From NCBI GenBank assembly GCA_028711115.1, contig JAQTSV010000001.1, forward strand, positions 70,032-134,031: a stretch of DNA of 64,000 nt. Direction: 5' to 3'. The notes below the pieces were generated by a model. That model was given only the letters and a program-made list of their open reading frames with translations. It did no database searches and was not told the DNA's origin. The DNA is from Candidatus Omnitrophota bacterium (GTDB lineage: Bacteria; Omnitrophota; Gorgyraeia; Velamenicoccales; JABMQK01). The position numbers and the translations under genes are program-made. Of this stretch, positions 8,424-58,509 are shown in pieces; the stretch's first letter is position 1; each line of letters begins with the position of its first letter.

Positions 8424-8987
8424 TTAAGCATGCAATACTTTGTCGACGGGGAAATCGTGAGACTCAAGGGACGGAATCCTGCCCAAGACCTGAAAATCAA
8501 AGGCAAGACCTATGGAAGGAATTTCTTTGGGTAGTGAATGTAAAAACCTGTCGTAATAGCCTAATCCTCTGCCTATACGATTACCGTGCAGATCAAAAGC
8601 AACTCCCGGCACAATAATCAGATCTATTTTATCCAAGGCTACATTGCGCATATGTTTTTTCTTGGGTTGGCGTATGCCGTAAGGCCCAAGCTCCAAATTA
8701 TATCCGCAATCAGAAATCAAAGATGGTATAAGTCTCTTATTACGACTATTAATCACAGGTAATGCTACTTTTTTACCCAAAGACATCGTCTTTTGTATCA
8801 TCCTGAAAGTCTCTACTTCACCGCCGAACGACAAATAAAAAAGAATCATCTTCGCCTTTATAAATTCCGGCAAAGAAAAAAGTTTGTTTTGGATTTTGAA
8901 ACTCCGTTTAAGCTGCTCTACCTCCTTCTGTTTTTTTAATCTCTTAAGCAACTGCGAGCGTATGTAGTTTTTTGTTCTTTTAATCAT
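8424..8987 (-). CDS. 5-formyltetrahydrofolate cyclo-ligase
   Basis: 187 aa. Carries the C-terminal family signature VPGVAFDLHGNRIGRGLGYYDRFL. Confidence 0.85.
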   Translation of the reverse strand: MIKRTKNYIRSQLLKRLKKQKEVEQLKRSFKIQNKLFSLPEFIKAKMILFYLSFGGEVETFRMIQKTMSLGKKVALPVINSRNKRLIPSLISDCGYNLELGPYGIRQPKKKHMRNVALDKIDLIIVPGVAFDLHGNRIGRGLGYYDRFLHSLPKEIPSIGLAFDFQVLGRIPSLESHDFPVDKVLHA

Positions 8988-11649: not shown

Positions 11650-11806
11650 AAAAAAAACCCCGCTTTGTGCCGTTGGTTTAGATGCTCTGAACCTGTTAGT
11701 TTTAGGTGGGTGCTCTATCCTATTAATCTCGATTAATAGAAATCCAAAGCTCCCGTTAATTTGTTGTTGGTTCAACAATCACCACGCGCCAACGGACACT
11801 GCAGGG
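11650..11806 (-). ncRNA. candidate structured RNA of unknown class (or rarA 5' leader) ending in a U8 tract
   Basis: Lies in a 407-bp ORF-free gap between pheT and rarA. On the minus strand, CCCTGCAGTGTCCGTTGG can pair with CCAACGGCACAAAGCGGGG just before TTTTTTTT. This stem encloses hairpins TTGTTG-AAC-CAACAA and CTATTAATC-GAG-GATTAATAG. No known family was recognised by eye. Confidence 0.3.
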
Positions 11807-11876
11807 CTTATGTAAGAACTCTCATATCTGAAACCAATTGTAGCACACAAAACCCTGCCATGCAAGAAACAAATTT

Positions 11877-34477: not shown

Positions 34478-34715
34478 AAATAAGTTTTGATTTTGCGCCC
34501 AACATACAATCATAACGTTTTTATCCGCCTTCGTTAAAACTTCGGCGAGATTTTTCTGAAACTTTAACAAAGGAGAACTTCGGCGGATGTCACCGATGAA
34601 CAAGCCCAAAGCAAGTCGGCGGATAACCCCGCCTTTTGCATTCTGCAAGAATGTGGCGGGGTAAATAAAGGTACCACGGGTTTGCCCGTGATGTTCCATT
34701 TTAAGCGAGGAGAAG

Positions 34716-37173: not shown

Positions 37174-37288
37174 GCCCCCATCGTCTAGCCTGGTCTAGGA
37201 CACGAGCTTTTTCCCGCCGTCGTCCCGCCGCAGGCGGGACTTTGGCGGGATCCCGCAAAGCACGAAGTGCGCATGCGGGACAAGCTTG
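37174..37288 (+). pseudogene. interrupted partial copy of tRNA-Glu (5' 38 nt + 69-nt insert + 8 nt of anticodon loop/stem)
   Basis: 37173-37211 is identical (39/39) to 37536-37574 of the intact tRNA-Glu. After the insert, CAAGCTTG (37281-37288) continues the tRNA sequence. No variable loop, T-arm or acceptor 3' strand follows. Confidence 0.85.
37212..37280 (+). repeat. GC-rich double-hairpin element X1 (inserted in anticodon loop of the partial tRNA-Glu copy)
   Basis: Layout: TCCCGCC-GTCG-[TCCCGCC GCA GGCGGGA]-CTTT-GGCGGGA-[TCCCGC..18 nt..GCGGGA]. Termini TCCCGC / GCGGGA are inverted repeats. Confidence 0.8.
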
Positions 37289-37294
37289 AGATAA

Positions 37295-37561
37295 ATGTAT
37301 TACGTATATGTTTTGAAAAATAATGAAGGTAAGCATTATATAGGTAGTTGCGTAGATTTAGAAACGAGATTAAAAAAACACAATCAGAATAGCGTTAGGT
37401 CCACAAAGCACAAAGGTCCTTTTAAAGTAGTTCATAAAGAAAAATTTGATAGCAGGACTGAAGCGCGGCAGCGAGAGAATCAGCTCAAGAACTATAAAGG
37501 CGGCAGAGCATTTAGGAAACTTATAGAAGAGTTGCAGCCCCCATCGTCTAGCCTGGTCTAG
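37295..37561 (+). CDS. small GIY-YIG (URI-domain) nuclease family protein
   Basis: 88 aa. MYYVYVLKNNEGKHYIGSCVDLETRLKKHN...EARQRENQLKNYKGG carries the GIY/YIG motifs and the conserved Arg/Glu/Asn pattern of COG2827-type proteins. The last 8 codons and the TAG stop lie inside tRNA-Glu. Confidence 0.85.
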   Translation: MYYVYVLKNNEGKHYIGSCVDLETRLKKHNQNSVRSTKHKGPFKVVHKEKFDSRTEARQRENQLKNYKGGRAFRKLIEELQPPSSSLV

Positions 37562-37611
37562 GACACGAGCTTTTCAAGCTTGCGACACCGGTTCGAATCC
37601 GGTTGGGGGCG
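37537..37611 (+). tRNA. tRNA-Glu (anticodon TTC), intact
   Basis: GCCCCCA-TC-GTC..GAC-A-CGAGC-TTTTCAA-GCTTG-CGAC-ACCGG-TTCGAAT-CCGGT-TGGGGGC-G. No encoded CCA. Confidence 0.92.
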
Positions 37612-37617
37612 AAATGT

Positions 37618-37721
37618 AACGGTTCTCCCGCATGTGTCCGCCACTACTACAATGGCGGACTTTTGCGGGATCTCGCCACCTGTAGTTCTAATTATTGTGG
37701 CGGGAGAATCCGGTTGGGGCG
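37618..37721 (+). repeat. second T-arm/acceptor-3'-strand copy of tRNA-Glu, split in the T-loop by element X2 (37626-37705)
   Basis: AACGGTTC | X2 | GAATCCGGTTGGGGCG compares with tRNA CACCGGTTCGAATCCGGTTGGGGGCG. X2 layout: TCCCGCA-TGTG-[TCCGCC..11 nt..GGCGGA]-CTTT-TGCGGGA-[TCTCGCCAC..17 nt..GTGGCGGGA]. Its layout is homologous to X1. Confidence 0.8.
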
Positions 37722-46649: not shown

Positions 46650-47537
46650 ATGTTTATGGAAAGGTTAGAAATGCCACATACCGCAACAACAATCACACCA
46701 GTTAAGCATAAAACAGCTGATAGGTTCACAAAAATAATATCTAGTATTAAGGAAAGCCCATTTTTTGAAGAGTCAGAAAAGAATATCTATTTATACAAGC
46801 AAGACTGCTTAAATATCCTTTCGCAAATCCCAGAAAATTCCATTGATATGATTTTCGCAGATCCGCCTTATTTTCTCTCCAATGGCGGAATAACCTGTCA
46901 TGCAGGAAGAATGGTTTCTGTAAATAAAGGTAATTGGGATAAATCTCAAGGCGTTGAAGAAAATCATGAATTTAATAAAAAATGGCTTGCGGCTTGTCAA
47001 AGAGTCTTAACTGAACATGGCACAATTTGGGTATCAGGCACCTCGCATATTATTTTTTCTGTGGGTTTTGCTATGCAACAACTGGGATTTAAGATTTTAA
47101 ATGACATTTCCTGGTTTAAAATAAACCCGCCACCAAATTTAAGCTGTCGGTATTTTACTCATTCAACAGAGACTATTATTTGGGCAGCAAAGAGTAAAAA
47201 TAGTCATCACCACTTTAATTATTCTTTAATGAAAGAGATGGGTGGTGGTAAGCAAATGAAAAGCCTTTGGGAAATATATCCTCCTAAAAATGGGGAGAAA
47301 ACCTACGGAAAACACCCTACCCAAAAACCACTCGCATTGCTTAATCGAATTATCCTTGCCTCGACAGGACGCTCGGATATTGTCCTTGATCCTTTCAGTG
47401 GAAGCGGCACAACCGGAGTTTCCGCCTTTTCCCAAGGCAGGAAATATATAGGTATTGAGCTTGAGAAACAATACCTGGATGTTTCTATTAAAAGGTTAAA
47501 GGATACTTTTAGGGAACATGAAAAAAAGAATTGCTAA
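46650..47537 (+). CDS. beta-class DNA methyltransferase (N6-adenine or N4-cytosine)
   Basis: Motif IV IFADPPY precedes motif I DPFSGSGTT (beta permutation), and HPTQKP is present. The true start may be the ATG at 46671, which has a better RBS. Confidence 0.9.
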   Translation: MFMERLEMPHTATTITPVKHKTADRFTKIISSIKESPFFEESEKNIYLYKQDCLNILSQIPENSIDMIFADPPYFLSNGGITCHAGRMVSVNKGNWDKSQGVEENHEFNKKWLAACQRVLTEHGTIWVSGTSHIIFSVGFAMQQLGFKILNDISWFKINPPPNLSCRYFTHSTETIIWAAKSKNSHHHFNYSLMKEMGGGKQMKSLWEIYPPKNGEKTYGKHPTQKPLALLNRIILASTGRSDIVLDPFSGSGTTGVSAFSQGRKYIGIELEKQYLDVSIKRLKDTFREHEKKNC

Positions 47538-57797: not shown

Positions 57798-57803
57798 AAT
57801 TTT

Positions 57804-57875
57804 GCGCCTGTAGCGTAACGGATAGCGCACTAGCCTCCGGAGCTAGGTGTGGCAGTTCGATTCTGCCCGGGCGCA
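57804..57875 (+). tRNA. tRNA-Arg (anticodon CCG)
   Basis: GCGCCTG-TA-GCGT..GCGC-A-CTAGC-CTCCGGA-GCTAG-GTGT-GGCAG-TTCGATT-CTGCC-CGGGCGC-A. Confidence 0.9.
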
Positions 57876-57884
57876 TAAATTAAA

Positions 57885-57946
57885 ACAGGTTTCCGCCGTA
57901 GGCGGATCCGCCTAATCTTTGTGGCGGACGATTCCTGTCAGGCGCA
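57885..57946 (+). repeat. second T-arm/acceptor-3'-strand unit after tRNA-Arg, split in the T-loop by double-hairpin element X3 (57892-57928)
   Basis: ACAGG-TT | [TCCGCC GTA GGCGGA][TCCGCC TAATCTTTGT GGCGGA] | CGATT-CCTGT-CAGGCGC-A. Same layout as the unit after tRNA-Glu. Confidence 0.75.
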
Positions 57947-57959
57947 TAAAAGTAGGTTG

Positions 57960-58017
57960 TCCCGACTCGTATGATGTTCAAAAATTCTCTTCGACAATTT
58001 TTGAACACTCGTCGGGA
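57960..58017 (+). repeat. long imperfect hairpin upstream of the TIGR00725-family gene
   Basis: Outer stem TCCCGAC (57960-57966) / GTCGGGA (58011-58017). Inner perfect 11-bp stem GTTCAAAAATT / AATTTTTGAAC. Confidence 0.65.
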
Positions 58018-58044
58018 TTATGCTGTATAAAAGGAAATATTAAG

Positions 58045-58509
58045 GTGCATAAACAAAAATTATTAATCGCTGTAATCGGCGGGCATAAGTGCAATAAAAA
58101 GACGGAAAAAATCGCTAAAGGATTAGGCAGAGAAATCGCCAATCTTGGCGCGATTTTAGTCTGCGGCGGATTGGGCGGAGTAATGCAGGCCGCGGCAAAA
58201 GGCGCAAAAGAATTTGGCGGCATAACCGTTGGGATTTTGCCCACCGACAATAAAAATGACGCCAATCCATATATCGATATTCCTATTGCCACAGGCCTGG
58301 GTTACACAAGAAATACATTGGTTACCACAGCAGCTGACATAATTATTGCTTTGCCGGGAGAATACGGCACGCTTTCAGAGATGGGTTTTGCTTTGAATGC
58401 AAAAAAGACAGTCATAAGCTTAGGCAGTTGGAAAATAAAAGGCGCAGTCAGATTTAAATCTGTCAAGCAGGCCATAGAATTTATAAAAAGGAGATTTTTA
58501 AATGCCTGA
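58045..58509 (+). CDS. TIGR00725-family (LOG/SLOG-like, lysine-decarboxylase-like fold) protein
   Basis: LIAVIGG...[17 protein letters not shown]...[12 protein letters not shown]. The probable GTG start at 58045 follows AAGGAAAT. The longer track ORF (from 57919) would read through the repeat element. Confidence 0.75.

Follow-up and report, generated by a model that had tools for sequence, protein, structure and literature searches.

Directly behind the gene for tRNA-Arg(CCG) in the 64,000-nucleotide (nt) stretch of Candidatus Omnitrophota DNA analysed here (the window) stands part of a second tRNA gene, a T arm and a 3' acceptor strand, whose T loop is interrupted by a palindromic double hairpin. 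The question raised by this locus is how a partial, perfectly paired tRNA end came to lie beside an intact gene. The initial annotation of the DNA had described this order of parts, and the layout holds to the base. We consider it likely that positions 57885-57946 are the T arm, 3' acceptor strand and discriminator of a previous tRNA-Arg(CCG) allele, interrupted by a copy of the double-hairpin repeat (here called X) and now dead DNA, the gene itself having been repaired by recombination.

The former gene end behind tRNA-Arg(CCG)

The nature of the fragment, listed as relic 1 in Table 1, becomes apparent once its 37-nt insert is removed. Joining the first 47 nt of the resident gene to the relic minus the insert yields a 72-nt tRNA-Arg(CCG) that is recognized by ARAGORN, and whose acceptor stem is Watson-Crick paired throughout; the resident gene has a T6.G67 wobble in this stem. 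The TT and CGATT of the relic together are identical to the resident T loop, TTCGATT, and its strand CAGGCGC is the perfect complement of the tRNA-Arg 5' strand GCGCCTG. Since the spliced tRNA is perfect, the relic is the real 3' third of a tRNA, and not a chance resemblance. It lacks tRNA positions 1-48, with the intact gene lying 9 nt upstream, and its ACAGG/CCTGT stem is, as had been noted from the outset, a perfect 5-bp helix distinct from the stem of the resident gene. The short hairpin motif of the insert, TCCGCC-N3-12-GGCGGA, is found three times in the window, where shuffles predict 0.05 occurrences, and all three lie in two tRNA-linked units, one behind tRNA-Arg and the other at tRNA-Glu. 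No function is proposed for relic 1, which at most burdens the folding of the pre-tRNA.

Table 1. Features of the tRNA-Arg(CCG) and tRNA-Glu loci of the window, and state of the Arg locus in related genomes (L-numbers denote loci in other genomes; X and Y are two families of hairpin inserts)
Feature	Position	Strand	Evidence or remark
Resident intact tRNA-Arg(CCG)	57804-57875	+	ARAGORN; Rfam, 62.7 bits
Putative replacement 3' module: T arm GGCAG/CTGCC and CGGGCGCA	57851-57875	+	T6.G67 wobble
Spacer TAAATTAAA, 9 nt, read as trailer of the putative replacement module	57876-57884	+	resembles native trailers
Relic 1, start: T-stem 5' strand ACAGG (57885-57889), T54 T55 (57890-57891)	57885-57891	+	identical to resident T stem of L136
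X insert, 37-nt palindromic double hairpin, short TCCGCC/GGCGGA variant, between T55 and C56	57892-57928	.	motif enrichment; predicted fold
Hairpin 1, TCCGCC-GTA-GGCGGA	57892-57906
Hairpin 2, TCCGCC-TAATCTTTGT-GGCGGA	57907-57928
Relic 1, remainder: CGATT (57929-57933), CCTGT (57934-57938), acceptor strand and discriminator CAGGCGCA (57939-57946)	57929-57946	+
Relic 2 (older): GTAGG TT (g), T-stem 5' strand and start of T loop	57952-57959	+	GTAGG as in resident T stem of L134
Hairpin TCCCGAC..GTCGGGA with inner hairpin, truncated Y copy	57960-58017	.	pairwise and multiple alignment
5' relic of tRNA-Glu(TTC), positions 1-35	37174-37211	+	38/38 identical to resident
X element, 69 nt, first hairpin nested, in anticodon loop of 5' relic (TTTT/X/CAA)	37212-37280	.
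5' relic, remainder: anticodon loop and anticodon-stem 3' strand, CAAGCTTG	37281-37288	+
GIY-YIG nuclease gene, 88 amino acids (aa), between 5' relic and intact tRNA-Glu, 3' end overlapping the tRNA	37295-37561	+	PF01541
Resident intact tRNA-Glu(TTC)	37537-37611	+	ARAGORN; Rfam
3' relic of tRNA-Glu, AACGG TTC, after spacer AAATGT	37618-37625	+
X element, 80 nt, in T loop of 3' relic	37626-37705	.	model R1, 27.5 bits, E 7e-7
3' relic, remainder: GAAT CCGGT TGGGGCG, one G shorter than resident	37706-37721	+
Arg locus, L134/L135: empty			tRNA with T stem GTAGG/CCTAC, without relic
Arg locus, L136: resident T arm ACAGG/CCTGT and CAGGCGCA; then TAACATAAA, GCAGG TTT, Y element			resident allele is that of the window relic
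Arg locus, L137: resident GCAGG/CCTGC			without 3' relic; 5' fragments repeated upstream
Arg locus, L130/L132: resident			new acceptor stem GCCCCCG
Arg locus, L130/L132: first relic			GGCCG TTC, 20-nt hairpin, GAAT CGGCC CAGGCGCA
Arg locus, L130/L132: second relic			GCAGG TT, 121 nt of nested TCCGCC/TCCCGCC hairpins, CGATT CCCGC CAGGCGCA TAAAAG

The source of the relic is revealed by related genomes. Four flavodoxin homologues (65-72% identity) led to syntenic Arg loci with the order flavodoxin - tRNA-Arg(CCG) - LDcluster4, and in the five related genomes this locus is either empty, singly stacked (L136), doubly stacked (L130/L132), or furnished with 5' fragments only (L137). From position 57939 on, the window is colinear with L136 from the resident 3' acceptor strand on (75 of 98 positions identical), and the colinearity continues into the fragment that follows, G(T/C)AGGTT with its hairpin, where 57952-57959 aligns with GCAGG TTT. 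The window relic is therefore orthologous to a gene end that is still working in a sister genome, and was itself once functional. Compared with L136, the window carries two additions: the 37-nt X within the T loop and, ahead of the old T stem, a 34-nt patch, GGCAGTTCGATTCTGCCCGGGCGCATAAATTAAA, which consists of GGCAG TTCGATT CTGCC followed by CGGGCGCA and TAAATTAAA. The last of these resembles native trailers, namely TAACATAAA behind the tRNA of L136 and TAAAAG after the relic. Furthermore, the resident gene is a mosaic, with an acceptor 5' strand and D arm identical to those of L136 and an anticodon arm identical to that of the L130 resident gene; together with the T6.G67 wobble, this composition fits a patch from a diverged allele.

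The initial annotation had argued that a simply decayed duplicate would not have kept its pairing, and the comparison bears this out: stem and strand are those of the allele resident in L136, rather than a decayed copy that was later re-paired. Two origins had been offered in its place. An origin from a different tRNA stands in the sense that the source is a different tRNA-Arg allele, with the resident stem of L136 and CAGGCGCA; an attachment-site (att) type sequence brought in by an element does not, as the relic is a native older end and no integrase or element body lies between it and the gene. Selection on the structure finds no support either, the unit being missing in L134/L135 and L137, and in decay both in L130 and in the Glu copy of the window.

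Alleles shift between the resident and the relic position, those resident in one genome at the Arg locus being relics in another. The tRNA-Val(GAC) relic of L029/L047 is likewise the allele resident in the window, at the same place before thrS, and two tRNA-Gln alleles are swapped reciprocally between resident and relic in L091 and L109.

Two further observations concern the deposited sequence data at this locus. The deposited annotation places the start of a 196-aa LDcluster4/TIGR00725-type protein at a TTG at 57919 (57919-58509), inside the relic. This start is probably wrong, because the orthologues have 153-163 aa, and initiation at an in-frame GTG (58045) that follows AAGGAA would give 154 aa. 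In addition, two Logan contigs from the same organism, with an identical flavodoxin (L002 and L003), both end about 49 nt past the flavodoxin stop, within tRNA-Arg, so that duplicated tRNA ends may break assemblies.

The tRNA-Glu locus and the X repeat family

The second unit of the window, behind tRNA-Glu, had been put forward as a parallel to the Arg unit, and the parallel is real (AACGG TTC / 37626-37705 / GAAT CCGGT TGGGGCG). This locus is of the same kind as the Arg unit, with the addition of a 5' relic and a GIY-YIG gene. These two features had escaped the initial annotation, as had the third Arg fragment at 57952-58017 and the recognition of the double hairpin as a dispersed repeat. The Glu 3' relic, with a mismatch in its stem and one nucleotide deleted, has a boundary, GTAACGGTTC, that is also found in L004 and L102 and is common to Glu(TTC) and Glu(CTC) units of different genomes. 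The 5' relic is identical to the resident tRNA-Glu within each genome, even though the tRNA varies among genomes, and its arrangement, with X splitting the anticodon loop, recurs in L004, L006, L008, L009 and L036. Homologues of the GIY-YIG gene are confined to Omnitrophota, and the order gyrA - split 5' copy - GIY-YIG - tRNA-Glu is kept in at least nine other genomes of this phylum.

Elsewhere, X splits the D loop of tRNA-Glu 5' relics (GTCT/X/AGCC; L008 2320-2395, L111 2441-2614, L101, L107, L048 and L068), where its copies sometimes form tandem arrays between the GIY-YIG gene and the intact tRNA-Glu. The gyrA gene upstream of the Glu locus contains a LAGLIDADG intein in L006/L007 (1-2374, by Pfam) and, on reading of the open reading frame (ORF), an intein-like insertion in L111, and a weak LAGLIDADG match is seen in the MJ0043_C-type gene of L130 (L130/L131/L133 1-1344). 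Selfish elements seem frequent around these loci.

The wider distribution of X was surveyed with a scan pattern devoid of tRNA sequence, TCCCRC-N8-38-GYGGGATCCCGC-N8-38-GCGGGA, with one genome taken per species. At least 120 stretches matched, mostly from Omnitrophota, and at least about 48 assemblies labelled as Omnitrophota by their record titles are among the matches listed. The assemblies with X include the closed genome of Ca. Velamenicoccus archaeovorus (L036), two single-cell assemblies (L109 and L123) and a few candidate-phyla bins, while the pattern matches in high-GC actinobacteria look like chance. A viral origin of X was rejected, a scan of viral contigs having given two single-strand matches that are taken as chance. 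Most copies of X are 54-66 nt long, within a range of 37-94 nt; each half comprises a 7-bp stem that closes a loop of some 17 nt, one half is approximately the reverse complement of the other, and the ends are TCCC/GGGA. In a covariation test of 60 aligned copies only the seventh stem pair varies (CG, UA, AU or GC), the other six pairs of each stem being fixed by the search pattern. A covariance model, R1, built from 60 X copies of other genomes, matches 37223-37280 in the window, within the anticodon-loop copy at tRNA-Glu, with 40.5 bits (E 9e-11). A TCCGCC..GGCGGA hairpin at 46862-46889 was rejected as a copy of X, since on reading of the sequence it codes for the DPPY motif in a DNA methyltransferase gene.

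The insertion of X is precise, and occurs at TT(N)/(N)AA without target duplication. Among the matches listed, the flanks give the logo TTN/NAA, position -2 being T in 73 of 100 copies and position +2 being A in 78. The Arg site, GGTT/X/CGATT, conforms to this rule, with the T loop restored across the insert, and the same TT/CGATT junction is seen in L079 and L130. Among elements known to insert without duplicating their target are the HUH/Y1 (IS200/RAYT-like) and IS110-like families.

The split arms of tRNA relics are a frequent setting of X. In the matches listed, an intact tRNA gene is found no more than 200 nt away from 35 of 100 low-GC copies, with 14 isoacceptor types represented, whereas by a rough estimate such zones make up about 1-2% of a genome of this size; some two thirds of these listed copies are not near tRNAs. 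Under a strict test, requiring a 7-nt TTCRANN loop and at least four of five stem pairs, a split T arm is formed by the flanks of 17 of 99 copies (again among the matches listed), as against 0.29% of all positions of the same loci. In the best-matching flank pairs the tRNA coordinates are contiguous across X, without duplication or loss, and the junctions occupy one of three loops: the T loop, the anticodon loop (on reading of the sequences, at tRNA positions 35/36) or the D loop (at gene positions 13/14). No split copy is complete; each stands 4-30 nt from an intact gene for the same isoacceptor, 3' relics being downstream and 5' relics upstream of it. Relics start at varying points, around positions 44-53 and at about position 21 in L006/L095, and identical units occur in tandem in L008, L033, L111 and L124. 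The suggestion that the layout represents a family holds: it recurs at 14 isoacceptor types in dozens of Omnitrophota assemblies.

X is also found within protein-coding genes. Long open frames span 12 of 92 copies among the matches listed, and in 10 of these 12 the length is divisible by three. The Pfam domains of EPSP synthase, TatD and a GlgC-type nucleotidyl transferase are interrupted in this way, with 19-21 extra residues, and in TatD the insertion occupies the same site in four genomes. On reading of translations, X is also present in SMC, GlyRS-like and macro-domain proteins. In-frame copies were noted in L010, L024, L031, L053, L067, L093, L114, L116, L122 and L125, and contribute residues such as ..GGIPP.. 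and ..GRDPA...

A second insert family, Y, of about 100 nt, is built of a TCCCGx..xCGGGA hairpin, TTAATTC, a second hairpin and CATTAA. It is unrelated to X, and is found at the same T-loop site of tRNA relics in L004 (3050-3145), L089, L109 and L136 (2085-2210). Another repeat family may be represented by a hairpin upstream of gyrA in the window (34626-34662; ACCCCGCC-TTTTGCATTCTGCAAGAATGT-GGCGGGGT), which has a similar loop, TTGCATTCTGCAAGAATG, beside a tRNA-Asp relic in L121. At 8669-8685, 17 nt of the window agree exactly with the variable arm of tRNA-Leu(GAG), GGCGTATGCCGTAAGGC (BLAST E 2e-4); they stand inside a CTTGGG..CCCAAG hairpin about 8 kb from that gene. Finally, a 6S RNA gene at 11653-11810 on the - strand (Rfam, 67.2 bits) confirms the bacterial context.

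Origin of the relics

How might such units arise? X behaves like a non-autonomous selfish element, abundant in Omnitrophota, that would insert into loop DNA fitting TT(N)/(N)AA. The T-loop DNA of every tRNA gene (GTTCRAA) fits such a site, as do some anticodon and D loops. An insertion of X would kill the tRNA gene, and the lineages now seen would be those in which an intact 3' module was restored directly upstream of the broken T arm. At the Arg locus this module would run from the anticodon arm onward, and include the T arm GGCAG/CTGCC, CGGGCGCA and the 9-nt trailer. Its source would be recombination with an intact, often diverged allele. A plausible route is misaligned recombination, in which a broken junction of T stem, TT and hairpin pairs with a like junction in a relic downstream of an intact copy. 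Each such cycle would add one layer, which would explain the tandem arrays, and repeated cycles would leave the stacks of relics, of which the Arg locus has two layers. The order of events and the recombination step are inferred.

Of the alternatives, the one that fares best, although improbable, is nuclease-driven homing, in which an endonuclease, for which the GIY-YIG protein is a candidate, would cut tRNA loops, and repair from a donor would copy a cassette of tRNA module and hairpins. The placement of the GIY-YIG gene, flanked in the window and at least nine other genomes by the split 5' relic on one side and intact tRNA-Glu on the other, would suit such a process. So would the within-genome identity of the Glu 5' relic and the resident gene, which suggests ongoing conversion, and the sharing of the GTAACGGTTC boundary by Glu(TTC) and Glu(CTC) units across genomes. 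Yet the gene is not found near the Arg locus or near most other units, its family is tied to tRNA-Glu only, with both nuclease activity and target being predicted, and tRNA homology is not required for the X copies located in ORFs or between genes.

It is distinctly improbable that the unit is a functional RNA element, whether as an alternative or back-up 3' module, as a processing or decoy substrate of RNase P/Z, or as a regulator that competes for the 5' acceptor strand. This would account for the perfect T stem and for the good conservation of the relic between the window and L130. Moreover, the relic acceptor strand pairs with the 5' strand better than the resident one does, and the 5' end is paired to the relic strand in the minimum-energy fold predicted for 57803-57960 (z = -2.4). 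However, the unit is missing at the orthologous loci L134/L135 and L137, and other relics are decaying, as seen in the Glu copy of the window and in the GCAGG/CCCGC stem of L130. The inserts at this same site, 20-121 nt long, come from at least two unrelated families. Rfam contains no match to the unit: at the gathering threshold and at E values up to 10, tRNA alone was returned at the Arg locus, with no intron or ribozyme.

A scar of an attachment site is very unlikely. Here, an island integrated in tRNA-Arg would have put a 3' end of its own in place of the old one, pushing the latter aside, before being mostly lost, with the hairpins as its remaining end. Integration into tRNA genes does classically leave an intact tRNA followed by a displaced 3' copy from a different allele (PMC9897764), and it is the resident 3' strand that is the foreign one. 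Nonetheless, the gap between tRNA and copy is only 9 nt, no integrase was found nearby, and the hairpins interrupt the T loop of the displaced copy rather than separating the repeats. The neighbours of the Arg locus, flavodoxin and the LDcluster4 protein, are the same as those of the empty-site orthologues, which does not point to an att duplication. The variable start points of the relics suggest illegitimate junctions, X also splits 5' relics, with junctions in D and anticodon loops, and sits in ORFs far from tRNAs, and the viral contigs yielded only the two one-strand matches. A crossover by an integrase within the T loop, bringing in a new 3' half, was rejected for Arg because it would mismatch the stems, whereas resident GGCAG/CTGCC and relic ACAGG/CCTGT are each internally paired.

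That the hairpins are ordinary intrinsic terminators with tRNA-like flanks by chance can be dismissed almost outright: GC-rich hairpins do lie directly 3' of the tRNA gene, but neither is followed by a T tract on the + strand (the next bases are TCCGCC.. and CGATTCC, and a terminator scan gave a single + strand candidate, the central palindrome with ATCTTTGTGG behind it), a perfect tRNA can be rebuilt from the flanks, dozens of genomes share the architecture, and a rough estimate puts the chance of an exact split T loop with a 5-bp stem and an 8-nt acceptor match below 1e-6. The terminator or processing site envisaged in the initial annotation is thus not borne out, as the hairpins lack a following T tract and have no match in Rfam. 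Models based on target-site duplication were rejected, the tRNA coordinates being contiguous across the insert, and so was a miniature inverted-repeat transposable element, for which the inverted termini are present and the target-site duplication is absent in well-matched cases. A tRNA intron, of group I or of the archaeal bulge-helix-bulge type, was rejected as well: the copy is partial, an intact gene is adjacent, the insert has 37 nt, and Rfam gives no intron or ribozyme match.

Insertion of X followed by recombinational repair must itself be weighed against several observations. Only 3 of about 31 positions distinguish the relic from its L130 orthologue, against 72% identity for the neighbouring flavodoxin; this close match could reflect constraint, or a shared origin younger than assumed. 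All loci come from metagenome bins, with the exception of the closed genome L036 and the single-cell assemblies L109 and L123. With R1 the Arg insert scores only 9.7 bits (E 0.16), the third-best locus of the window after both Glu copies, and this score taken alone is below significance. Its very short loops, of 3 and 10 nt compared to about 17 nt, lower the score. Its TCCGCC/GGCGGA stems are one C:G pair shorter than the common form, and its hairpins adjoin without a spacer; in the Glu unit of the window, in L130 and in L014, TCCCGC hairpins enclose the TCCGCC form. The Arg insert is assigned to the X family mainly by its architecture, its T-loop site, this nesting, and the L130 orthologue that carries both forms. 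Among ORFs of at least 100 aa clustered from about 100 X loci, no recurrent transposase or other mobilizing enzyme was seen near X. The recurrent clusters are GIY-YIG (at the Glu locus), one unannotated cluster (8 loci), and others that look like housekeeping or syntenic genes, with two clusters backed by Pfam. Insertion polymorphism of X within species was not seen, and its mobility is judged from its distribution. Lastly, X may have inserted before the duplication, or may simply have landed in a copy that was already redundant.

More tentatively, these loci raise the possibility, which we regard as rather unlikely in its full extent, that Omnitrophota, and perhaps neighbouring candidate phyla, harbour an undescribed class of active, loop-seeking palindromic elements that home to the T, anticodon and D loops of tRNAs. 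A recombinational ratchet, by which the hosts would survive, would add 3' or 5' modules, many of them from diverged alleles, drive rapid tRNA turnover and mosaicism, and leave layered relics, and the cassette of GIY-YIG and tRNA-Glu would be an autonomous relative.

Significance and relation to known systems

Genes for tRNAs are usually regarded as among the most stable sequences of a genome. The different states of the Arg(CCG) locus, together with the exchange of alleles between resident and relic, point to a selfish repeat that drives tRNA allele replacement and the formation of mosaic tRNAs, a source that appears to be unreported. In the literature nothing specific was found on hairpin repeats of Omnitrophota, on palindromic elements in tRNA T loops, or on layered tRNA relics. 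The target of X, TT/AA in hairpin loops, is clear and computable, and a search for the mobilizing enzyme is therefore tractable. On a practical level, the relics confuse annotation, as illustrated by the 196-aa LDcluster4 ORF, and probably break short-read assemblies at tRNA loci.

In its behaviour, X is comparable to the Rickettsia palindromic elements (RPEs), which were reportedly described by Ogata et al. in 2000 as single long hairpins of about 100-150 bp. Both are short palindromic selfish repeats of one bacterial lineage, inserted in frame in housekeeping genes and in RNA genes, without a transposase. The likeness is behavioural only, X being 37-94 bp long and composed of two hairpins with 7-bp stems. 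To our knowledge, RPEs have neither a preference for tRNA loops nor an association with stacks of tRNA relics.

A second comparison is offered by the REP/REPIN repeats, which, according to what Bertels and Rainey are said to have found in 2011, are mobilized by RAYT transposases. Like a REPIN, X is an inverted palindromic doublet, non-autonomous, inserted without target duplication and present in many copies per genome. Unlike REPINs, which are extragenic, it also resides in ORFs and tRNA relics, and its ends are TCCC/GGGA in place of a GTAG-type tetranucleotide.

Free-standing GIY-YIG homing endonuclease genes, such as seg and mob of phages or the atp6 insertion of Allomyces, duplicate part of their target gene. 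The Glu locus, though not the Arg unit, resembles them in having a GIY-YIG gene inside a broken copy, followed by an intact copy, and its homing is putative.

Structurally, the closest counterpart to X is the double-hairpin element (DHE) of the mitochondria of chytrids and fission yeasts (Paquin et al. 2000), which is dispersed, thought to be mobile, and has no known enzyme (PMC10085805). X and DHEs are both GC-rich units of tens of base pairs with two adjacent hairpins, found in intergenic DNA and RNA genes. X, however, is bacterial and chromosomal, whereas DHEs are organellar and eukaryotic, and no link to split tRNA arms or gene patching is described for them in PMC10085805. The Arg unit also shares with att-derived tRNA fragments (PMC9897764) a partial 3' copy of a different allele beside an intact gene with a foreign 3' end. 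Units of the Arg type differ from such fragments in that there is no element body or integrase, the spacer is 4-30 nt, the starts are variable, 5' relics occur, and the loops are filled by hairpins. The finding falls within known kinds, palindromic selfish repeats and tRNA gene fragments, and is not a new category; within these, X may be viewed as a bacterial counterpart to the RPEs and to the mitochondrial DHEs.

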